In this document: piece after piece, positions 78 through 12,445 of the stretch
Numbering within the stretch: the stretch's first letter is position 1
Layout: every line of letters begins with the position of its first letter
DNA from: a virus
Virus record (IMG/VR): IMGVR_UViG_3300045988_104734
Span: 1-12,445 of that record
Length of the DNA stretch: 12,445 nt
Strand: one strand, 5' to 3'
Notes under the pieces: generated by a model
What the model was told of the DNA's origin: nothing
Database searches by the model: none
The model's input: only the letters and a program-made list of their open reading frames with translations
Program-made: the position numbers and the translations under genes

Positions 78-93
78 GCCAGATTGTACAAAT

Positions 94-111
94 TTGGTCA
101 GGTTGACATGC
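94..111. repeat. Subterminal conserved box TTGGTCAGGTTGACATGC (left copy)
   Basis: 17 of 18 bases match the reverse complement of 12320-12337, which lies outside the perfect ITR. The box contains TTGACA. It abuts the stop codon of the tail fibre gene at 112. Confidence 0.8.
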
Positions 112-2064: not shown

Positions 2065-2941
2065 CGTTTTCATACCTCCAATCAACAGAAATTTTGAGAT
2101 CGGGGAACATTTTCCGGACGCGCTCGCAGTCATCCTGCAACTGTTCGAGCCACATTCCCGAGCGCGAGAACGTCTCTACGTTGTTTGCGTTAACCTCGTC
2201 TGTGGTCAACCGCTCGCGTTTGGTGATGTTAGCGTTTGGGATGCCGATCTCGGTACAGAACTGGTTTTCGAGCGCTCGCATATCGTCAAAGATTTTCGTT
2301 GCGATGTAGTTTTGCCCGACGTTCTGCGAAAATGTATACCAAGCGTTTTTACCGTCCGGCGCTTTAAGACGAGTGTCGAGAACGACCGCCGGATCGCCCT
2401 GCTGAATTTGATCGTAGAGCTTTTTGAACGTCTCGGCCGCTGCTTTGTTTCCGGCGGCGAACACGTAGGAAAGTTTGCTGTTCAACATGTTCATGCCCGC
2501 CGCCTCGCTTGCAATGGCGAGCTGGTCGGCGTAGTAGGAAACAAGGTCGCCTATACCCATCCAGTCAGGTGTGAGCCGGATAATCTCACAGTCAATGCCG
2601 ATAGTGAACGGATTTGAAATGTCCGGCAGGATAGGATTTGCGACAATGAACTGTGAGGGCTGCATAAAAACGTTGTAGCCGCTGACGCCTCCGAGCTGGG
2701 GAATAACGCCGAATTTCTTCGTCGGCACGATTCCGACATATCCCCAATAAAAGAGGCCGTAGAGGAAATAATTCTTTGCCCAATTGAGCGGCATTTTCCA
2801 GCGGAAAACCGACATTGCTTTCTGTAAAAGGTATCGCTCGAAAAAGCTGTGAAGCGCCGTGTTGCGAACGTGCACTGTCGATGGTGATGTCGAGCCGGAA
2901 ACGGCGTTAATTTGCCGGTAGGAATAGGGCGGATTTGTCAA
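1979..2941 (-). CDS. Portal (upper collar/connector) protein, phi29 gp10-like, about 320 aa
   Basis: EIGIPNANITKRERLTTDEVNANN...SRSG...ISVDWRYE closely parallels remembered phi29 gp10 [23 protein letters not shown]...ESSG...VKVKFRYD. The N-terminal PYSYRQINAV resembles NTYRSINEIQ. The likely start is TTG at 2941, which has GGAGG 9 nt upstream and overlaps the upstream TGA as TTGA. An alternative ATG lies at 3001, and the ORF track extends to 3070. Confidence 0.9.
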   Translation of the reverse strand: MTNPPYSYRQINAVSGSTSPSTVHVRNTALHSFFERYLLQKAMSVFRWKMPLNWAKNYFLYGLFYWGYVGIVPTKKFGVIPQLGGVSGYNVFMQPSQFIVANPILPDISNPFTIGIDCEIIRLTPDWMGIGDLVSYYADQLAIASEAAGMNMLNSKLSYVFAAGNKAAAETFKKLYDQIQQGDPAVVLDTRLKAPDGKNAWYTFSQNVGQNYIATKIFDDMRALENQFCTEIGIPNANITKRERLTTDEVNANNVETFSRSGMWLEQLQDDCERVRKMFPDLKISVDWRYENDERNDEPVRTVDSEQRPFRLLQNPGRAG

Positions 2942-3480: not shown

Positions 3481-4906
3481 AATACGCCCCGTTCATCAAC
3501 ATTCTGTTGATCGAATCGCGCTCCGCGTCGGTGCGGCCTCCGGAGAACTGCGGCGAGGCGATCTCGACATAGCCGGGAACGTCAGAAATTTTCCGCACCT
3601 CACAAAGCGGGCGGCCTATTTCGTCGTTGTTCTGCGCGGCGATCCGCGAGAACGTGCCGGTGAGACGCACAGGGAAATAGCCTGCGGTGTATGTCCCGTT
3701 TGATCCGAGAGATTGCAGCGGAGATACTTTCGATAGCATATAAGCTCCGACGCCTTTTGCGACGGTCATAAAGGTATTTTCGAGACGGTCAATAACATTC
3801 CCTTGCGGATTGTCGAACTTTACACCAAGCAATGAACTAACGCCACTTTCAAGAGCTTCGGCACCCGCGGCAATAAGGCCCATTGAGGAGTTAGCGATTT
3901 GTACAGGCACGCCGATTTGAGAGCGCAGCACGTTACAATATCCGAACGTTGTTGTGAGAGCGTTAGCGCCGATACGTAACGATCCCTCGCCTGTGATGCA
4001 GTCAACTGTCCATTGAAAATCGAGGAGATCGCAATCAACCAAAGCGGCGGCCGGGACAGTCACGGCCCCGAACGGTTGAAAATCAAGATAATACTGTGAG
4101 TACGGCTCGGAAAGTAGCCAATAACCGCGCGTCAATGCGTCCGGGTGTTTGGGAACTTTGATTGTCAGCGTGCCGCCGGATCGAACCGTCTGTGATAGTT
4201 TTTTCGCGCTCGCCGAGACCTCCCACCATCCGATGGGGATCGTCGTCACGTCGCCGCTCGTTGGCGGCTGTACCGGAATCCAGATACACGAGGAAATGTA
4301 GCTGAACGGATTAAACAGGACTTTTGTCAACTGCTCGGAAATCTCGGCAATGTCTCCGAGATAGTCAGTTGACGAAAGGAGCTTTGCCGAGAACGCGCGA
4401 AATTGCGCATCCGTCATAACGTAGTAGGACACGGCCCCGACGCTGTTTGCGTCGTTATTGATGACTCCCACCACGTAATAACCATTTGCAATGCTCGATG
4501 CAAAGGGGTTGTTTGTGTTCGTTTCGACCGCATACGTAACACCCACCTCCGATACCGCCGCGGGATCGGGAATGCGGCCATTATGCGCAGTGCTCGACCG
4601 GTTAATCATGCATGTCATTTCTCCAATCTCCGAGCGGTATGTGCCGAGCACGTCAACGGCGAGATCGACCTCCCAGAGTCCGCGCAGAAATCGCCAATTC
4701 TCCACGAAATAAAAGCGGTCAAACTCGACGATACGCGCATACCCAAGATTTTGCGGATTGATCGGAGGCTTTAATAGAATCGTGGGCCGGAGAAGACCAG
4801 AGCCGTCCAACAGCTCACAGGAAAATTCTATGTCTGCAAGATCGCCGGGAATTTTGGTCGAATTTGTTCTTTTCGGGAACGTGTAAAATTTAACCGTATA
4901 GGACAT
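3473..4906 (-). CDS. Tail knob / distal tube protein (phi29 gp9-like), 477 aa
   Basis: It follows the capsid gene, as gp9 follows gp8 in phi29. The N-terminal block YARIVEFDRFYFVENWRF...LAVDVLGTY parallels remembered gp9 YIMFQNADYGNKWFYAFV...FEIDVLQTW. RBS GGAGG lies 5 nt upstream of the ATG at 4906. Confidence 0.75.
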   Translation of the reverse strand: MSYTVKFYTFPKRTNSTKIPGDLADIEFSCELLDGSGLLRPTILLKPPINPQNLGYARIVEFDRFYFVENWRFLRGLWEVDLAVDVLGTYRSEIGEMTCMINRSSTAHNGRIPDPAAVSEVGVTYAVETNTNNPFASSIANGYYVVGVINNDANSVGAVSYYVMTDAQFRAFSAKLLSSTDYLGDIAEISEQLTKVLFNPFSYISSCIWIPVQPPTSGDVTTIPIGWWEVSASAKKLSQTVRSGGTLTIKVPKHPDALTRGYWLLSEPYSQYYLDFQPFGAVTVPAAALVDCDLLDFQWTVDCITGEGSLRIGANALTTTFGYCNVLRSQIGVPVQIANSSMGLIAAGAEALESGVSSLLGVKFDNPQGNVIDRLENTFMTVAKGVGAYMLSKVSPLQSLGSNGTYTAGYFPVRLTGTFSRIAAQNNDEIGRPLCEVRKISDVPGYVEIASPQFSGGRTDAERDSINRMLMNGAYYE

Positions 4907-4970: not shown

Positions 4971-6146
4971 CTAATCGAGCGTGAAAACGACCGCGTTCTC
5001 CGTGAAGTCGTTCCAGTAACGATCCTGGAAGTTCCAGAACGTATTAGCGTAACGACCGCGGGGATTCCAAATCGAGCCGACGTCGTAGTTGCAGACGGAA
5101 ATTCCGGCCGCCTCTTCGTCCATGAGCACCGCGAACACGTTCGCAACGTCCACCTTTTCCGCCTCCGTCGTGATCGTGCCGTCGGCCGCCAGATAGGACG
5201 GCAGCGCGGAAACAGCGTCCGGCGTCTTGATCGACTGCCAGAAGTTGACGATCTCGTTGGACGCGTCGCGGATATAATTCTCGTGATAGGTGTCCGCGAG
5301 CACGCGCGCCTCCGTCTCGAATTTCGCGGGCGCGTACATGAACACTTTCTGTCGGGCCATCGGCGTATGACGGATGAAATTCCCGGCCGTGATGTTCGTG
5401 TGGAAATCGATGCTTCGCTCGGTCATCAGAGACGAAATAGAGGCAATGCGCGCATATACCCACTTCATAAACGCGGGGAATACGTCAGGCGCATGAACGG
5501 TCGTTGCGGTATACTTGCCGCCGGTCGCGGCGTTGTACTCTGTCAGAAGATGGATATTCTGCTGCGCGTTCGCCTGTTTCGCGATACCGGCAATGAGGTT
5601 TGCCATAGTCGCGCGGGCCGTCGTTTCATGATCCTGTTCGATCTGGTCGGACACATTCTGCATCTGTCCGGCGATGAACGATGCAAATTCATCCGGCGAC
5701 GTGAACGCCGCGTCGAGCTGATCGCGGAAAACAGTGGTCTTGCGCTCATAGTCGGTGCGCCCATAGAAATTCGTCTGGATGATTTTGGGCTTGCTCACGT
5801 TGAACGGATCGACGCTCGCGGCGTCTGCCGGAGCGAGACCCGCGTCGTCGACGGGATCGCTGTCCAGATAGTTGATCTTTCGGACGTGGTTTCCCCACTT
5901 CCGAGAATCCACGAACAGGCCGCCGAACTTGCGGGTATACGGCCGCACGGAAAAGATCGTGCGCGCGAGCACCTGCGAAATCGCGTTCATGGCGGGCTCG
6001 TAGCCGGTTTTGAGCAGCGTCTGCCCGACACTGACGAATTCGCCAGTGTTGATCGGAGACTGGACGCTATGTCCGGTCGCCTGATGCAGCATTTCGGCGA
6101 GAGTCGCCGAGAGCTGCACAAATTCAAGATTGTTCACATTGGGCAT
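4971..6146 (-). CDS. Major capsid protein (phi29 gp8-like HK97-fold), 391 aa
   Basis: The C-terminus SIWNPRGRYANTFWNF...FTENAVVF parallels remembered phi29 gp8 TVRNPRGLYWNYYYHV...FANAVAF. The gene sits directly after the scaffold candidate with a TAATG stop/start overlap. There is no Ig-like C-terminal extension. Confidence 0.85.
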   Translation of the reverse strand: MPNVNNLEFVQLSATLAEMLHQATGHSVQSPINTGEFVSVGQTLLKTGYEPAMNAISQVLARTIFSVRPYTRKFGGLFVDSRKWGNHVRKINYLDSDPVDDAGLAPADAASVDPFNVSKPKIIQTNFYGRTDYERKTTVFRDQLDAAFTSPDEFASFIAGQMQNVSDQIEQDHETTARATMANLIAGIAKQANAQQNIHLLTEYNAATGGKYTATTVHAPDVFPAFMKWVYARIASISSLMTERSIDFHTNITAGNFIRHTPMARQKVFMYAPAKFETEARVLADTYHENYIRDASNEIVNFWQSIKTPDAVSALPSYLAADGTITTEAEKVDVANVFAVLMDEEAAGISVCNYDVGSIWNPRGRYANTFWNFQDRYWNDFTENAVVFTLD

Positions 6147-6592
6147 TATTTTTTCTCCCCTCCATTAATGAGATTTGTGAGATATGCCTCCGCGATCTCT
6201 CCCGGAGACTGCGGCGGCGTTTCGCGCGAGATGGTCAGAATGTTGTGCTGCTGCACCGCGCCCAGCAGCTCAGCGATCTTCTGATTGATCGCTGCGAGCT
6301 CTGGATTTGCCGGAGCAGCCGGAGCAGCCGGAGCAGCCGGAGCAGCCGGAGCAGCCGGAACAGCCGGAGCAGCCGGAGCAGCCGGGGCTGTGGGAGCAGC
6401 CGGAGCAGCCGGAGCAGCCGGAGCCGCCGGAGCAGCCGGAGCAGCCGGAGCCGCCGGAGCAGCCGGAGCCGCCGGAGCAGCCGCCGGAGCAGCCGGAGCA
6501 GCCGGAGCAGCCGGGTCCGGTGTCAAAAGCCGCTCGATGAATGCCGCGGAAAATCCCGCGTCAAGCAGTTTGTTTACATCTTCGAGATTCAT
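6146..6592 (-). CDS. Putative scaffolding protein with central (PAA)n linker (148 aa from ATG 6592; the ORF-track GTG is at 6601)
   Basis: It lies immediately upstream of the capsid gene and is translationally coupled to it, like phi29 gp7. It has helical N- and C-terminal segments. The central region holds about 23 Pro-Ala-Ala units. Function is inferred from position only. Confidence 0.45.
   Translation of the reverse strand: MNLEDVNKLLDAGFSAAFIERLLTPDPAAPAAPAAPAAAPAAPAAPAAPAAPAAPAAPAAPAAPAAPTAPAAPAAPAVPAAPAAPAAPAAPAAPANPELAAINQKIAELLGAVQQHNILTISRETPPQSPGEIAEAYLTNLINGGEKK
6309..6515. repeat. Tandem 9-bp repeat (GCCGGAGCA)n, about 23 units, in-frame within the scaffold candidate
   Basis: The repeat is directly visible. 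Units are mostly identical, with a few single-base variants (gccggaaca, a ggggctgtggga segment, gccgccgga) and one 12-nt unit. It encodes PAAPAAPAA on the minus strand. Confidence 0.97.
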
Positions 6593-6597
6593 GTTGT

Positions 6598-6951
6598 TCA
6601 CTCTTCCTTTTCGTGATTTCCGTGATTGCTGTCAAAGAATTTGCCGAGAATGTCCGCCGCTGCGGGGGAAAGTTTGCGGATGTTCTCCAGGATGCTGCCG
6701 ATCTCCATCAATACGAGATAGGAAGCCGCGACCATAACCAGATCAACCGGGAGCTCGATATTGACGAAAGGCGCGAACTTGTCGCACATCACCGCCAGGC
6801 CGAGAGCTGCCAGCTCGCCCACTTTGTTAAACAGTCCCTCGCGCATGATCGCGCTTTTGAACTGCTTGTTTTTGAGAGCCGCGAGCAGACCTGTGAGAAG
6901 ATCGCCGAGAATGAACGCAAGAACGATGCAGCAGACCAGTGTCACATTCAT
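6598..6951 (-). CDS. Holin (phage_holin_4 / TcdE-like family), 117 aa
   Basis: It has three hydrophobic segments (VTLVCCIVLAFILGDLLTGLL; ELAALGLAVM; LVMVAASYLVLMEIGSIL) and a charged C-terminal tail. The LGDxxTG N-terminal motif is typical of this holin family. A strong RBS, GAGGAGGTG, lies 7 nt upstream of the ATG at 6951. Confidence 0.85.
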   Translation of the reverse strand: MNVTLVCCIVLAFILGDLLTGLLAALKNKQFKSAIMREGLFNKVGELAALGLAVMCDKFAPFVNIELPVDLVMVAASYLVLMEIGSILENIRKLSPAAADILGKFFDSNHGNHEKEE

Positions 6952-6979
6952 TTAACCACCTCCTCACCGGTCGAATTTC

Positions 6980-7008
6980 AACATACCAAAACATAATAAG
7001 AAAAGGAA
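6980..7008 (-). promoter_or_regulatory. Candidate late promoter with extended -10 (TTCCTT, 17-nt spacer, TGgTATGTT)
   Basis: On the minus strand the -35-like TTCCTT is at 7008-7003, the TG extension at 6988-6987 and the -10 TATGTT at 6985-6980. This places it about 30 nt upstream of the holin start. The match to consensus is weak. Confidence 0.25.
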
Positions 7009-7080
7009 CACAAGTGTCTGCCCCGACCGAGAGCATGGACGCGCTTTCCGGGCGCTGGTCTTGTCCCTTGTGTTCCTCTT
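6989..7080 (-). other. Long compound hairpin plus U-tract in the ATPase-holin spacer (terminator or structured RNA)
   Basis: On the minus-strand RNA, AAGAGGAACACAAG (7080-7067) pairs with CUUGUGUUCCUUUU (7014-7001) for 14 bp including one G-U. The stem encloses 52 nt with further GGAC/GUCC, GACC/GGUC and GCGC/GCGC pairings. UUCUUAUUAUGUUUU follows. Confidence 0.6.
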
Positions 7081-7109
7081 CATTATCATATCACCTACCG
7101 CTACTGTTG

Positions 7110-8129
7110 TCAAGTGGCAAGTTTCCGAAAGAATGCCTTTGCCGCCAAATTCGAGAACGAAAGCCGCTCGTCAATGAAAGCGAGCCAGAAAATTTTAAGA
7201 TACCGCGCGCGGAAACTCGCCGCCGCCGTCTCGCCGTTGCCCAGATTGACCGGGTGGCCGAACGAATGTTCCGTGATATGAAACTCTGCGGTACCTTTCA
7301 CGCCGCAGAACGTATAACCGCCGACTCTGACGATAGGCTTTAATTGCTTGAGATCGCGCGAACGAATATTCGATACGTCGGTCATCACAAATTCATTGTC
7401 AAGCGCCATTGCCGAAAAATCGCCCTCTCCGGCAACACGATAGAGCGCTGTGTCCCTCTTCTTCTGCGAGATCGGGGATTTTGTCAGGGAAATAACACAG
7501 ATTCCGCGCGCGTCGTCCGTCCACATTTCCCGGCCGGAAGCAAAGGCTCTCCGCACATTGTCCGCGATTCCGAGCGTGAGAAAGACAGGGTTCGCAAGAT
7601 CGCCGCTGTTTGACAGACAGATCATTTTCAGAGGTTCGCGGCCGTCAAGCTCTCGGTTTCGGTTCATTGTCTCGTATGCGTTCAGAAATGCGAGGCCCTC
7701 ATTTCGGATTTGCGTTTCGTGAGGTTCGGGGATGAACTCGTCATAAATGCAGTATTTCGCCGCCGAAACGTCAAAGCCTCTCACGTTGGCGATGGCCGTT
7801 AACGCTAACATGATGCAGCGCAGATCGCCGCGCGCTCCCTCCGTGCTCTCCCAAACGCCGACAGCATTTCGAGAAATGCCGTTTTGCTCAAACTCAATTC
7901 CGCGATCTCGACAGAATGGAACGAACGGCGACAGCTCTTTTCGGCTGATCGCGTCAAGCTGCGTCTGTCTCCGTCGCATGAAAACAAACTCGCCGCCGCG
8001 TTCCCAAGCCTCCGAGATCGCGCCGTATGTCTTGCCGGTCGCTCGGCCTCCTACGACCATTATAAACGGATAGGACAAATCGAAAATTTCTTTAAAATCG
8101 GGATAGCCGTCTTTTTTAAAAAGTTTCAT
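7110..8129 (-). CDS. DNA encapsidation (packaging) ATPase, phi29 gp16-like, 339 aa
   Basis: Walker A is VVGGRATGKTYG, compared with remembered gp16 VIGARGIGKSY. Walker B is CIYDEF. The size matches gp16 (about 330 aa). RBS GGAGG lies upstream of the ATG at 8129. Confidence 0.9.
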   Translation of the reverse strand: MKLFKKDGYPDFKEIFDLSYPFIMVVGGRATGKTYGAISEAWERGGEFVFMRRRQTQLDAISRKELSPFVPFCRDRGIEFEQNGISRNAVGVWESTEGARGDLRCIMLALTAIANVRGFDVSAAKYCIYDEFIPEPHETQIRNEGLAFLNAYETMNRNRELDGREPLKMICLSNSGDLANPVFLTLGIADNVRRAFASGREMWTDDARGICVISLTKSPISQKKRDTALYRVAGEGDFSAMALDNEFVMTDVSNIRSRDLKQLKPIVRVGGYTFCGVKGTAEFHITEHSFGHPVNLGNGETAAASFRARYLKIFWLAFIDERLSFSNLAAKAFFRKLAT

Positions 8130-8177: not shown

Positions 8178-8540
8178 TCAGCGGACGACGCTGCATGTGA
8201 TAAAGTCGCGGCCGGTCTTGCCGCTCACGCTGCGAACAACGGCCACACGATCAAGCGTCTTTCCCATCTGGGTAAACAGCTCAACCATCTTGCGGAAGTC
8301 GCGGATAAAGTAGGGGCTGTTCGTCACGTAAACGCGATCATCCTTGCCGAGAATGGAGAGGTTTTCGCGGACTTCGCCGGTCTTCTCGGAAACGTCGTCG
8401 TAAAAGACGGCGGTCTCGATCTCGATACTCTCAACCTCCACAGTCTTCCTGATCGGTACGGCGCTGGAATCGGAGGTCAGCAGCCAAACCTCTTCAGGGG
8501 AAAGCTCTTTGTTCGCGGGGTAAATTTCGTTGATTTTCAT
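8178..8540 (-). CDS. Hypothetical protein (120 aa), possibly an ssDNA-binding protein of the replication module
   Basis: The ORF lies directly after the polymerase. AAAGGA lies 9 nt upstream of the ATG at 8540; the ORF-track start at 8564 is a TTG. The alternating beta-like pattern and size resemble small phage SSBs such as phi29 p5, but I recognise no diagnostic motif. Confidence 0.6.
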   Translation of the reverse strand: MKINEIYPANKELSPEEVWLLTSDSSAVPIRKTVEVESIEIETAVFYDDVSEKTGEVRENLSILGKDDRVYVTNSPYFIRDFRKMVELFTQMGKTLDRVAVVRSVSGKTGRDFITCSVVR

Positions 8541-8560
8541 GTCGGGGCATCCTTTCTTTT

Positions 8561-10624
8561 TCAAAATGTCCGAGATTTCCTTTTCGTCCCGGTACGTATA
8601 GTATAGCGCAATGTTCGCACAATGTCAACGGCAAAATGAGGATTTCCCAAAATAAGCGAATAGTCACCGGCAAGCCCCAATTCGTATGTCGTAGGTACAA
8701 GGCATGTGTTTTTCGTCACTTTCCACACTTTTCCATTTTTCGCCGTGTAATTCCAATCTCCGGCGATATGGTCATTATGAACGGCGGCGAGCTTTCCGGA
8801 ATCGGAAAAAACAAAACCCTCTCGAAATGCTGCAAGGCCGCCTTTCGCCGCAAGCTCGGCGCTTCCCGCTTTTTTAGGTACTCCCGCAATTGTTATTTCG
8901 AGATCGCCTTTCTGATCGATAGCCGCGTATTTTTTCGCGCCCATAGTGACAAACTGCTCGGCGGTTTCCTCGCCCTCGAACACTCCCATAAAATGCTCGA
9001 CGCCGGAAGGGTCGGTCGCGTACGCACCGCTCTGCATATCGTCGGCGATGCACTGATCGTTAAACAATGTAAAATCAAGATCGCCTACATATTTAACACA
9101 GTCAGTGTCGCAGTAGACAAACTGACTTCCCGCAATATCGATTCCCGTCTGCAATGCGTCTCTCGCCCATGCGGTCACCCAGACACCCCAAGCGTAGGAG
9201 AGAAAAGCGCTTTTGTTCGCTCGCAGAAGCTGATCCTCCGGCCGCGCGTCTGTCAGTGCGAATTGCCGGTCAGACTTCGGGCAGTATTTCCACTCGGCCC
9301 GCACGGGATCGGTTGCCATCATGCCATAAATCGCATTTAACTTTCGCTTTGACTTCGCATATAGAACCTCTTGACCTTTTACATTTTTCAGCTCGGTCTT
9401 TTTTCGATAATAGTCAAGGCAACAATCAATAATCGGCTGTGGAAGCGCGCCATATTGGGCATATCGTAGATCGCCAATCTCGACACTTTCCCAAGCATAT
9501 TGTCGCTCTACGATCTTCCAATCTACATCGGTCAATGTCGTTTCGAGCGAGGCGGCCCGCAGAATGCGGCCGTTATCCTTTATCGGCCGCGAAATGTCCC
9601 TGCATTTTGAATGCGCGAGGTACGGGCAGCCGGTCAAAGGGTCGCGCAGCTCGATATTGATGAACCTCGCCCGAAAAAGACATGCTCTGTGATGCTTGTC
9701 AATCAGCCGCCGCAGCGTCTTTTCGTCACTGGTGAGGCTTTCGCAAAACGGCGACATTGGGAAAGGTCGGTTGCAAATGACGTCTGGATAAGAGCTCGAC
9801 CGGTCGCAGGATTTAACGTCGACGAGAATCATGTTTGCATAAAGCCTGTTTGCGTGAGTATTGCCGCCTCGGAACGCCTCTCGGAGCAGGACATAATCCT
9901 CCCAACCGGGGGCGAGATAGCGATACGATTTCCCAGCTTTCCGCAGAGCGGCGCGCACATCGCGCCGGACGTAGCCGGTGGACGTGAGCGGCAACGTGTG
10001 CAGCGTGTCGCCGTCGTGCCGCATCTCTGCACGAATCGCTTCCACCAAACCAAGAACATCGTGAACTGCATAGGCAATCTCACTTTCGGAGAGCTCGGTG
10101 TCCGGCAGACGAAAAACCGAATAATCGAAGTCATGCAGCTTTGCGTGTTCGACGCGCATTTCCTTTAGAAAAGCGTCAAGCGAAAGGTTACTGTGAATAT
10201 AGGAACAACGAAATTCGACAAAGCCGCACATGTCAGCCTTTGCCACCTTTCGCGGCTGGAGGGCGAATACATCATCAGGGCCGAAATCAAAAACGCCAGA
10301 AAGAAATTGGAACTCGTAGGAAAGATTGTGAACAAACACCACCAGCCATGTTTTTTCCTGCATAGCGGCCTTTGCAATAGCTATGCAGTCTTTGAACTCT
10401 TCCCACGTCCGGCCGACGATCACATCGCTCTCAAAAGCCCATTGCCACACATACATTATCGATTCCTCCGTGTCGGGTATCCGGGAAGTCTCGATGTCGA
10501 AAGCGCTCACCACGTCGACATACTCGCGCTTGACCTTTACATTTCCCGGATGCTCGACACGTTCAACTGTCACATGATCGACAATTGCCTGTTTCGCGGC
10601 GCGCGTCCCTGCCGCATAAATCAT
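8561..10624 (-). CDS. Protein-primed family-B DNA polymerase (687 aa from ATG 10624; the ORF-track GTG at 10657 gives 698 aa)
   Basis: Exo I is FDIET, Exo II is HNLSYEF and Exo III is YAVHDVLG. Motif A is DRSSSYPD (Dx2SxYP), motif B is KRKLNAIYG (Kx3NxxYG), motif C is YCDTDC and the KxY motif is GAKKYA. GGAGGAAAGGA lies upstream of the ATG at 10624, which sits 2 nt after the upstream TAA. Confidence 0.95.
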   Translation of the reverse strand: MIYAAGTRAAKQAIVDHVTVERVEHPGNVKVKREYVDVVSAFDIETSRIPDTEESIMYVWQWAFESDVIVGRTWEEFKDCIAIAKAAMQEKTWLVVFVHNLSYEFQFLSGVFDFGPDDVFALQPRKVAKADMCGFVEFRCSYIHSNLSLDAFLKEMRVEHAKLHDFDYSVFRLPDTELSESEIAYAVHDVLGLVEAIRAEMRHDGDTLHTLPLTSTGYVRRDVRAALRKAGKSYRYLAPGWEDYVLLREAFRGGNTHANRLYANMILVDVKSCDRSSSYPDVICNRPFPMSPFCESLTSDEKTLRRLIDKHHRACLFRARFINIELRDPLTGCPYLAHSKCRDISRPIKDNGRILRAASLETTLTDVDWKIVERQYAWESVEIGDLRYAQYGALPQPIIDCCLDYYRKKTELKNVKGQEVLYAKSKRKLNAIYGMMATDPVRAEWKYCPKSDRQFALTDARPEDQLLRANKSAFLSYAWGVWVTAWARDALQTGIDIAGSQFVYCDTDCVKYVGDLDFTLFNDQCIADDMQSGAYATDPSGVEHFMGVFEGEETAEQFVTMGAKKYAAIDQKGDLEITIAGVPKKAGSAELAAKGGLAAFREGFVFSDSGKLAAVHNDHIAGDWNYTAKNGKVWKVTKNTCLVPTTYELGLAGDYSLILGNPHFAVDIVRTLRYTIRTGTKRKSRTF

Positions 10625-10626
10625 GG

Positions 10627-11226
10627 TTATTCGTCCTTTCCTCCGGTCTCTACCCACAAATAGAACGCATCTTCGAGATCTTCTTGTGTGCTGTACTTTC
10701 CGGAATTGTCGTCGAAAAAATCCGCGATTTCCGGCGAGCCAATGCGAAATCCGCGCGTCGTTTCTCGCGCAAACTGCATAAAGCGGTCGAAATCTGGGTA
10801 TGTTCCCTCGTCGACGAAATCTCCGGCCGCCTCGCGTGCTTTCCTGACATTACGCTCGAATTTTCGGCGAGCGCCGTAAACGGTACTCTCTTCTTTTGTG
10901 AGAAACGACCGCAGCCCGGCCAAATTTCCAGCGAGAGCGGTTGACGATTTGCCTATTTCTTTCAGCGTTGGAAAGCCTGTCGAAACCGCATCCTTGACGT
11001 TCTCCAAACGCTTAAGCAGCGGATCGGCTTTCAAGCGAACAATGCGCTTTTGCGCGATATTGCGGAGGCGGGTGTACTCTCGGCGCAGGTCTTTTTCGCT
11101 GATTTCTTCCTTGCCCAGCTTGACCAAAAGAGCATAGGGTGTGTACTGCTCGACCGGAAGATTAAACTTTACCGGCTTTGGTTTCGGCGGCAGACGGCCG
11201 CCGGTCTTTGAAAATTTACTCGACAT
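10627..11226 (-). CDS. Candidate terminal protein (199 aa from ATG 11226)
   Basis: It lies immediately upstream of the protein-primed polymerase and is coupled to it, as phi29 gene 3 is to gene 2. It has a basic N-terminal half (KPKPVK, REYTRLRNIAQKRIVRLK) and an acidic C-terminal domain (DFFDDNSGKYSTQEDLED). There is loose resemblance to remembered phi29 TP segments (EYARLVKNTKAKIARTK; EEFDSEGNT). The 258-aa ORF-track version overlaps the upstream gene and has an implausible Cys/Arg/Trp-rich leader. Confidence 0.55.
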   Translation of the reverse strand: MSSKFSKTGGRLPPKPKPVKFNLPVEQYTPYALLVKLGKEEISEKDLRREYTRLRNIAQKRIVRLKADPLLKRLENVKDAVSTGFPTLKEIGKSSTALAGNLAGLRSFLTKEESTVYGARRKFERNVRKAREAAGDFVDEGTYPDFDRFMQFARETTRGFRIGSPEIADFFDDNSGKYSTQEDLEDAFYLWVETGGKDE

Positions 11227-12319: not shown

Positions 12320-12337
12320 GCACGTCAACCTGACCAA
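12320..12337. repeat. Subterminal conserved box (right copy; GCACGTCAACCTGACCAA on the plus strand)
   Basis: Its reverse complement, TTGGTCAGGTTGACGTGC, matches left-end 94-111 at 17 of 18 positions. The right arm carries an extra 13 nt (cggctgtgcatgt in inward orientation) between the box and the ITR. Confidence 0.8.
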
Positions 12338-12368
12338 ACATGCACAGCCGAATTTGTGCAATCTGACA

Positions 12369-12445
12369 AACCGCCTCCCTTTTTGTGCAATGTGTACAAT
12401 ATGCACAAAGGGGAGGCTTCCTATTTGTGCAAAGTGTACAGAGTG
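12369..12445. repeat. Right terminal inverted repeat (perfect 77 bp)
   Basis: It is the exact reverse complement of 1-77. Confidence 0.97.

Follow-up and report, generated by a model that had tools for sequence, protein, structure and literature searches.

A conserved pseudoknotted RNA at the head of the late operon of small phi29-like gut phages: a candidate miniature packaging RNA

What is encoded by the longest non-coding spacer of a small phage genome, placed directly behind the gene for the DNA packaging ATPase? The question is raised by IMG/VR record IMGVR_UViG_3300045988_104734, analysed here over its whole length of 12,445 bp (the window), which is a complete linear genome with perfect 77-nt terminal inverted repeats. 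The minus strand carries every sizeable gene, and the ORFs for the ATPase and the holin are separated by a gap of 158 nt (6952–7109). An earlier sequence-only reading had singled out exactly these 158 nt as the longest non-coding stretch in the genome; they are indeed the longest internal gap between minus-strand ORFs, the remaining gaps measuring 48–107 nt. It had left two explanations for the structured element inside the spacer, a long-stem terminator that isolates expression of the ATPase, and an RNA resembling the prohead RNA (pRNA) of phage phi29. To our knowledge, pRNA is the only RNA known as part of a viral DNA-packaging motor.

The identities of the genes in the window were assigned using Pfam and PHROGs on ten ORFs (Table 1). 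The AlphaFold model of the ATPase has a pLDDT of 86.5 and its best structural matches are the asccphi28 gp11 motor (7jq6, E=8e-15) and phi29 gp16 (7jqq_A, full length, E=1e-11); the N-terminal (5hd9) and C-terminal (7cnb) domains of the phi29 ATPase are also matched separately. A phi29-type connector (PF05352) is encoded in the syntenic relatives L002, L004, L006 and L171. Based on the types of its ATPase, capsid, SSB and PolB and on the fold matches of the ATPase, the window is a small phi29-like phage, belonging to the group with a pRNA-dependent motor. Relatives of the ATPase fall into 3451 database clusters at E<=1e-10, many of them on contigs of 12–14 kb. The closest GenBank phage record, MT838760, ends 58 nt before the spacer. 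No Pfam or PHROG family of a Q-like or N-like antiterminator was found among the ten ORFs, several of the small early ones being without any match.

Table 1. Features of the window, with positions counted from its first nucleotide. Paired strands are written 5′ to 3′ as read on the minus strand; counterparts in phi29 pRNA are given in brackets.
Feature	Position	Strand	Remarks
Protein-primed-type family B polymerase (PolB)	8561–10657	−	Pfam/PHROGs
phi29-type SSB	8178–8564	−	Pfam/PHROGs
gp16-type DNA packaging ATPase	7110–8129	−	339 aa; Pfam PF05894, E=2e-12
ATPase stop codon	7112–7110	−	TGA
−35 hexamer	7108–7113	−	TTGACA; overlaps the ATPase stop codon
Extended −10	7085–7093	−	TG-a-TATGAT; 17-nt spacer from the −35
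P1, 5′ strand (A helix)	7067–7081	−	closing helix; pairs with 7014–7000
P2, 5′ strand (C helix)	7063–7066	−	GGAC; pairs with GUCC 7040–7037
Bulge (CE loop)	7056–7062	−	AAGACCA; 7 nt, on the 5′ side only
Bulge/P5-loop pairing	7060–7057 with 7028–7025	−	GACC (bulge) with GGUC (P5 loop)
P3 hairpin (E hairpin)	7041–7055	−	GCGC-CCGGAAA-GCGC; 7055–7052 with 7044–7041
P2, 3′ strand	7037–7040	−	GUCC; abuts P3, zero nucleotides opposite the bulge
P5 hairpin (D hairpin)	7020–7034	−	GCUCU/GGGGC, 7034–7030 with 7024–7020; 5-nt loop CGGUC, 7029–7025
Junction strand, P5 to P1	7015–7019	−	AGACA; 5 nt, length and A/G-rich pattern conserved
P1, 3′ strand	7000–7014	−	
U-rich tract	6988–7004	−	UUUUCUUAUUAUGUUUU; with P1, an intrinsic-terminator-like 3′ end in the window
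Holin ribosome-binding site	6959–6965	−	GAGGAGG
Holin	6598–6951	−	first gene of the late (lysis and structural) block; Pfam PF05105, E=2.5e-15
phi29-type major capsid protein	4971–6146	−	Pfam/PHROGs

The minus strand of the spacer can be folded into an RNA of about 85 nt, a three-way junction whose 5′ and 3′ ends are paired in P1. Direct reading confirmed the outer stem described earlier, 7080–7067 with 7014–7001, as 14 bp including one G–U (15 bp with G7081–C7000) around an interior of 52 nt. The helices GGAC/GUCC and GCGC/GCGC, the latter around CCGGAAA, are both present, as is the U-rich run, UUCUUAUUAUGUUUU lying directly 3′ of the outer stem. At least three interior helices had been proposed, and they are there, but P5 had been overlooked. 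The two strands of the proposed GACC/GGUC helix are likewise present and paired; because GACC sits inside the GGAC/GUCC helix and GGUC outside it, they cross that helix and form a pseudoknot, in which a bulge loop contacts a hairpin loop, and not a further nested helix. The spacer folds on the minus strand with −54.2 kcal/mol (z = −3.3, none of 200 shuffles as good) and on the plus strand with z = −1.55. A genome-wide folding scan of 110-nt segments gave 14, nearly all in coding sequence, with an equal or lower score. The element is thus no outlier among the folding z-scores of the genome and thermodynamics alone is therefore no evidence; judged from the window sequence alone, the fold exceeds chance only moderately.

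Searches of Rfam with the whole window and with the spacer alone returned only sub-threshold microRNA and snoRNA noise, and no pRNA, riboswitch or ribozyme family. Three stems and a loop–loop contact also describe a hammerhead-like ribozyme. We rejected this candidate: the junction strands have just 0–1, 2 and 5 nt, the CUGANGA/GAAA core is missing and there is no Rfam match. A 49-aa ORF running across the element on the minus strand (6964–7113) was rejected as a gene. Its start is the TTG of the −35 hexamer, and the corresponding region in relatives shows indels that are not multiples of three as well as paired substitutions.

Relatives were gathered from contigs carrying close and 48%-identical ATPases, to which 80 loci from IMG/VR and 80 from metagenomes were added, together with 11 full-length IMG/VR contigs from two odd subgroups, six GenBank records and 64 contigs in GTDB genomes, all of the last being MAGs from human or ruminant guts and mostly Clostridia bins. 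A search of IMG/VR with the single ATPase protein gave no relatives; an alignment query succeeded. Two covariance models were used, R1, which holds the nested helices only, and R2, built from the matches of R1; the loop–loop pairing is in neither. Of 164 gut loci, 147 have a copy located by the models, one in each, and almost all of these lie on the ATPase strand 20–60 nt past the ATPase stop; the models also give one match each in the four complete genomes searched (the window, L002, L004 and L006). Scores on the sense strand range from 21 to 84 bits, most exceeding 38, against at most 19 on the opposite strand. R2 matches 33 of the 64 MAG contigs and also GenBank records whose ATPases share only 26–34% identity.

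Divergent copies can be read by eye in three loci that the model missed (L016, L070 and L104). The same is true of the cultured Amedibacillus phage AD70P2 (OP172638), in which the promoter TTGACA-17-TGaTATATT precedes a P1 of UGAGGG/CCCUCA and a P2 of UUGC/GCAA, and the bulge AUAUCCAA pairs with the P5 loop (AUCC with GGAU). About 190 related phage sequences retain the fold, with many base changes that compensate one another. The MAG bins of the carrier contigs run from Clostridia to Bacteroidales and Treponema; such bins are unreliable for host assignment and we therefore conclude only that the carriers are gut phages, probably mostly of Clostridia.

When the spacers of the first nine relatives are aligned, the core shows stronger conservation than the ATPase protein (48% identity), and compensatory changes are seen in four pairings, for example GACC/GGUC to GGUC/GACC and GCGC/GCGC to ACCG/CGGU. 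RNAalifold on a MAFFT alignment of 25 relatives recovered the same four nested helices, with compensatory changes in 21 of 22 pairs, which bears out the folded element proposed from sequence alone. When 99 distinct sequences are compared, 92.5% of pair cells hold standard pairs, as opposed to 56.8% after shuffling and 38–44% with the partners slid by 1–3 columns, and all 30 pairs have changed on both sides. The individual helices differ in how they vary. P1 has changed on both sides in each of its 13 model pairs; it is 14–15 bp long in the window and has a median of 11 bp (range 8–13) in relatives. P2 is paired in 100% of the 99 sequences with its two central pairs varying freely, P3 in 99.6–100%, and P5 in 92.9% with all five pairs changed on both sides. 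The core of the P3 loop, CGGAA, hardly varies within the family. Conservation is highest in the 52-nt interior, above that of the stem, and the interior covaries helix by helix in four pairings.

The pairing between the bulge and the P5 loop, although absent from the search model, is formed in 90.8–94.3% of sequences, its four pairs have all changed on both sides, and it occurs in 40 distinct versions among the 99 RNAs. Where it lengthens it does so in both loops together (GAAAC/GUUUC in L078, ACGAC/GUCGU in L087 and UCGCC/GGCGA in L059). Among close relatives 9% of the loop–loop pairs have changed and 0% of those in P2, P3 and P5 (some 20 non-independent pairs), which is suggestive of a faster evolution of the loop–loop pairs. 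That a conserved and transcribed family of pseudoknotted RNAs exists can be put forward with very high confidence.

Immediately upstream of the stem, a near-consensus sigma-70/sigma-A promoter (7113–7085, minus strand) matches 11 of 12 consensus positions and carries the TG extension. Transcription would start near 7079–7077 (about 7078), among the first bases of the stem. The sequence-only reading had instead placed a possible extended −10 downstream of the stem. The promoter-like match found there, 3′ of the U tract (CAGACA-16-TATTAT, 9 of 12), is weak, and the segment is deleted in relatives whose ATPases are 86–94% identical. By comparison the upstream −35 is invariant in the alignment of the first nine relatives and an exact TTGACA stands at the equivalent position in 56 of 71 distinct relatives. 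Most promoters of the relatives agree with the consensus at 10–12 of 12 positions, the TG extension being frequent; since the −10 ends 0–8 nt before the start of the model match, the RNA is expected to begin at P1.

The 3′ side is more varied. The sequence right after P1 is U-rich in 38 of the 99 relatives (the window included), intermediate in 37 and not U-rich in 24; in six of these 24 a separate classical terminator hairpin with its U run directly follows the RNA. Termination right after the RNA is hence reached in two ways, by a U tract on P1 or by a separate hairpin and U run. About 18 of the 99, for example the L034 group, have no recognisable terminator and the SD of the next gene lies within some 20 nt, thus release of the RNA in these genomes would need processing. 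The next SD-bearing ORF in relatives follows P1 at a median distance of 28 nt (about 16–58 nt). In L004 and L006 the U tract runs directly into the holin RBS and leaves no space for another promoter; the late genes of these two phages can therefore be transcribed only through the RNA. The best reading of the spacer would be a small-RNA gene with its own strong promoter, going beyond a terminator alone.

The position of the ATPase beside the RNA is not constant. In a subgroup with 14-kb genomes the ATPase is the last gene of a rightward unit, which stops at a bidirectional terminator, and the late genes are read towards it from the opposite end; the RNA is away from the ATPase and heads the late operon with the same promoter. 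An example is L171, where the RNA (13269–13184, minus strand) is followed by an ORF for a small membrane protein and then by the capsid, connector and tail genes. In L243 and L224 the RNA is upstream of the ATPase and on the opposite strand. As the RNA stays with the late operon when the gene order changes, its constant neighbour is the first late gene and not the ATPase. The linkage that is never broken is that of strong promoter, RNA and first late gene.

On balance we lean towards the view that the RNA is a miniature packaging (prohead) RNA which also ends early transcription in this genome. Host RNA polymerase would start at the sigma-70/sigma-A promoter whose −35 lies on the ATPase stop codon. 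In the resulting product of about 85 nt, P1 would close the three-way junction, P2, bulge and P3 would form one arm and P5 the other, and four bases of the bulge would pair with four of the P5 loop. The U tract after P1 would cause most transcripts of the window to end as a discrete RNA, with those that read through serving as mRNA for the holin and the structural genes. We infer that the head of the junction (P2, P3 and P5 with the CGGAA loop) may dock on the connector vertex of the prohead, and that P1 would point outward and receive the gp16-type ATPase. The complementarity of bulge and loop would either link neighbouring copies into a ring, as it does in phi29, or lock the fold. P2 (4 bp) and P5 (5 bp) are of similar length, so the loop–loop pairing could form within one molecule.

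The phage family, the match to the plan of pRNA, the single copy, the dedicated promoter, the two modes of termination and the diversity of the loop pairings all favour a packaging RNA. Against it stand the absence of detectable similarity to known pRNAs and the helices, which are all shorter; we roughly estimate a reduction of about 40% in the length of the arms, and a pentameric ring would then be tight around a connector of normal size. The roughly 18 of 99 relatives that have no recognisable terminator also count against it, and the constant position at the late operon, kept when the ATPase is elsewhere, fits a role in cis equally well. A wider proposal is about as likely as not: packaging RNAs would not be confined to Bacillus phages, and a second, minimal class of pRNA, about 80 nt long, built to the same plan and unrecognisable by sequence, would work with the gp16-type motors in a very large clade of phi29-like phages of human and ruminant guts with genomes of 12–15 kb. 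As part of that proposal, the pRNA gene would be fused to the start of the late operon, so that the motor RNA and, by read-through, the structural proteins would come from one promoter.

The simplest alternative is the one preferred in the sequence-only reading, a plain intrinsic terminator for the early (replication and ATPase) transcript, followed by a late promoter. The window itself invites it, having a G+C-rich stem of 14–15 bp, then UUUUCUUAUUAUGUUUU and then a weak promoter-like match. Yet a terminator does not account for an interior that is more conserved than its stem, with four covarying pairings and an invariant loop, the U tract is missing from 24 of 99 relatives and so is dispensable, and close relatives have a deletion of the promoter-like segment downstream of the stem, the strong, conserved promoter lying upstream of it. 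The intricate constraint on the interior and the dispensable U tract contradict a plain terminator as the complete explanation, the element moreover tracks the late operon, and we regard this alternative as the least probable, close to negligible. A terminator stem could also be under the control of an aptamer. An attenuator of the riboswitch type, sensing a ligand or a protein, would use the junction and pseudoknot as the aptamer, and in the bound state P1 would form and stop transcription ahead of the late genes. A three-way junction of about 85 nt with a loop–bulge pseudoknot is reminiscent of the aptamers of several riboswitches, the THF class among them, and P1 does double as a terminator stem in the window. 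However, no Rfam riboswitch family is matched, a separate expression platform is lacking, the U tract is missing from many relatives, and the pseudoknot varies freely (40 variants), unlike a ligand pocket; the sole invariant loop, CGGAA, is a solvent-exposed hairpin loop. Such an attenuator is very unlikely. We give equally little credence to a trans-acting small RNA with some other target, be it a decoy for host defence or a regulator of host or phage mRNAs. The strong promoter and frequent terminator make a discrete, abundant RNA plausible, but there is no conserved, extended single-stranded seed and the conserved parts are structural. The carriers' ATPases are only 26–48% identical and their bins belong to many host taxa, a spread that argues for a core function in the virion or in expression and not for a host-specific one.

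More serious is the possibility that the RNA is a cis-acting leader of the late operon, which would act on the polymerase or the mRNA and determine when, and how strongly, the holin and structural genes are expressed. It could do so by processive antitermination as in the put RNAs of HK022, as the target of an antiterminator as in lambda PR′-6S-tR′, or as a stabiliser against RNase J and RNase Y. A stem within a few nucleotides of +1 is the classic geometry of a 5′ stabiliser in Firmicutes. The genomic evidence fits: in the convergent genomes the RNA has parted from the ATPase but not from the late operon, it lies on the strand opposite to the ATPase in L243 and L224, the next SD is close behind P1, and in L004 and L006 another promoter would not fit. 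Many genomes have a terminator between the RNA and the late genes, so that expression of these genes needs read-through, and the relatives without a terminator are also consistent with a leader. On the other hand, neither a stabiliser nor a simple attenuator has any need of a three-way junction, a covarying loop–loop contact and an invariant CGGAA; an alternative (antiterminator) pairing is not evident and nothing sequesters the SD; a terminator that would have to be overridden is missing from about a quarter of relatives; and no Q-like or N-like gene is recognised among the ten ORFs. The match in helix order with pRNA would moreover be a coincidence, and one occurring in precisely the group of phages that uses pRNA. 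A purely cis-acting leader is a possibility that we hold tentatively and consider doubtful, and it is improbable that the RNA has a role other than packaging or purely cis-acting control. We note that packaging RNA and cis leader are compatible, as one promoter could supply both the small RNA and the late mRNA.

The known carriers of RF00044-type pRNA are Salasmaviridae of Bacillus and Cytobacillus. In a 2024 review whose coverage of phi29-like phages extends to Guelinviridae and Amedibacillus phages, pRNA is described as a feature that only phi29 and its Bacillus relatives have (PMC11476376), a review from 2016 restricts it likewise, and an Infernal search of viral genomes in 2025 added pRNAs only within the Bacillus phi29-like group (PMC12670572). 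In a paper on Clostridium perfringens podophages pRNA is named only as the partner of the ATPase and none is identified. The gut RNA family is not in Rfam 15, nor is it described in the pRNA literature that we found. Packaging RNAs may exist well beyond the Bacillus phages. Were the packaging reading true, the ancestry of the RNA to all gp16-type motors would become testable, the minimal parts of a pRNA would be defined, and nanotechnology, which makes use of the ring-forming RNA, would gain a second natural system offering many natural loop specificities. Were the leader reading true, the family would be a new and widespread class of pseudoknotted RNA that controls the late genes of the smallest tailed phages. 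The cultured carrier, Amedibacillus phage AD70P2, makes experiments feasible.

Among known systems, the arrangement at the late promoter of lambda (PR′-6S-tR′) is similar in that a strong, constitutive-looking promoter is followed by a short, structured, terminated transcript and then by the holin and structural genes, read-through being required for late expression. It differs in that no Q-like protein or Q-binding element is recognised in the gut phage and that the terminator is missing in about a quarter of the gut relatives. The lambda 6S leader is not known for any junction or pseudoknot fold held by covariation. The put RNAs of HK022 are also structured, promoter-proximal RNAs of some 70–85 nt, ahead of a long operon and upstream of terminators, but consist of two stem-loops with neither a junction nor loop–loop pairing.

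For the comparison with phi29 pRNA, the RF00044 consensus from Rfam, run on phi29, was taken as the reference structure. No similarity by covariance model is detected in either direction. RF00044, whose gathering score is 100 bits and against which phi29 reaches 145 bits, has no match in the window or in 6960–7120 alone at E up to 10, and R1 and R2 give nothing above 10 bits on phi29 and do not find its pRNA. The gut RNA, at about 80–85 nt, is shorter than the phi29-type pRNAs (117–174 nt), it is without the CCA bulge and without domain II, and its near-invariant CGGAA loop has no counterpart in pRNA. It heads the late operon on the late-gene strand, whereas the pRNA gene of phi29 is at the genome end, after the early operon. 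Followed from one end of the molecule to the other, helix A of phi29 has about 26 bp with the CCA bulge and P1 13–15 bp with no conserved bulge; the strand to the first arm has 1 nt in phi29 and 0–1 nt in the gut RNA; and the stem of that arm has 9 bp in helix C and 4 bp in P2. The bulge on its 5′ side is 9 nt ending in AACC in phi29 and 7 nt (AA-GNNC-A) in the gut RNA, and is followed by the E hairpin of 4 bp in the one and by P3 of 4–5 bp with its CGGAA loop in the other. The next junction strand is UUU in phi29 and 2 nt in the gut RNA, the second arm is the D hairpin of 6 bp with loop U-GGUU as against P5 of 5 bp with loop y-GNNC, and the strand back to the closing helix, which phi29 does not have, is 5 nt.

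These differences are set within a common plan. Both RNAs belong to protein-primed podophages with a gp16-type ATPase, a gp10-type connector (in the relatives of the window) and a phi29-type capsid. In both, the 5′ and 3′ ends of the transcript pair as the closing helix of a three-way junction, and the elements follow one another in the same order of closing helix, junction, C-like helix, bulge, E-like hairpin and D-like hairpin. The bulge is on the 5′ side only and a short hairpin comes directly after it. The D-like hairpin has a loop of 5 nt, the last four bases of which are complementary to the bulge, with which they covary. A dedicated promoter of the sigma-A type is placed so as to start transcription at the closing helix, just as promoter A1 sits directly before the pRNA in phi29. 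The pRNA-like character proposed from sequence alone thus gains support from the type of motor, the order of helices, the complementarity of the loops and the promoter, and none from RF00044 similarity, helix length or the CCA bulge. With the same plan, differing sizes and no match between the models, the resemblance of the gut RNA to pRNA is therefore one of design.

A CCGG-containing motif is found between the three-way-junction RNA and the next SD in several clades, as AUCCGGC; in the window it reads ACCGGU (6966-6971). It lies around 10-20 nt past the closing helix P1 in seven of the related loci (L044, L045, L049, L052, L053, L064 and L067) and shows complementarity to the region of the invariant CGGAA loop in hairpin P3. 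The motif and the P3 loop could form an additional long-range pairing. The complementarity could also have arisen by chance, CCGG being a palindrome; the motif is missing from L002 and from the L034 group.

The position of the RNA relative to the ATPase gene varies among the related phages. In L028 and L109 it is located around 900 nt past the ATPase gene, instead of directly after it; an additional gene therefore appears to have been inserted between the two. In the 14-kb subgroup (L171-L180), which has a convergent layout like that of phi29, the RNA has been relocated together with the late operon to the opposite genome end. The cultured Amedibacillus phage AD70P2 (L182, OP172638; 12.3 kb), assigned to Guelinviridae, shares the ATPase-gap-late gene order of the window. 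Its gap, unannotated in the record, holds a divergent copy of the RNA, to which our covariance model gives no match.

Coordinates of features in the window and in related phage loci
Feature	Genome	Position	Strand	Remark
Imperfect inverted pair, 27 nt	Window	85-111 / 12320-12346		Just internal to the 77-nt terminal repeat
151-aa ORF	Window	6146-6601	minus	Between holin and capsid genes
Second near-consensus promoter, TTGACA-17-TATACT (11/12)	Window	8600-8628	minus	
Divergent copy of the RNA	L182 (OP172638)	6384-6506	minus	In the gap after the ATPase gene
The RNA	L028 and L109	3380-3463		
Bidirectional terminator, CAGCCCCUGCC-GUAUU-GGCAGGGGCUG	L171 (example)	4794-4830		After ATPase
Separate terminator hairpin	L078 (example of subgroup)	2643-2668		After the RNA

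The window termini (regions 1-111 and 12320-12445) carry a perfect inverted repeat of 77 nt. Inside it a motif of around 24 nt, TGTACAnnTTGCACAAAnAGG, recurs, with two copies per end in one orientation and one in the inverse; these repeats, like the 27-nt inverted pair, are probably an origin or sites for terminal-protein/DNA binding. Within the 151-aa ORF, around 23 tandem copies of the 9-nt unit GCCGGAGCA (6300-6520) encode a proline/alanine tripeptide repeat, and G+C peaks here at 0.68. In L002, L004 and L006 the counterpart gene has a product of just 106-119 aa, so the repeat has expanded in the window's genome. The second promoter is internal to the polymerase gene, at its 3′ end, and directly precedes the SSB and ATPase genes. 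The lowest folding z-score of the genome scan (around -6.9, -54.9 kcal/mol) was obtained at 6011-6120 (minus strand), among the initial codons of the capsid gene.

In a further subgroup (L066, L072, L077, L078, L079 and L135) the U tract on P1 is replaced by a classical terminator hairpin of its own, ACAGGCGGU...ACCGCCUGUUUU, following the RNA. This arrangement recalls the 174-nt pRNA of phi29 with its extra 3′ domain.
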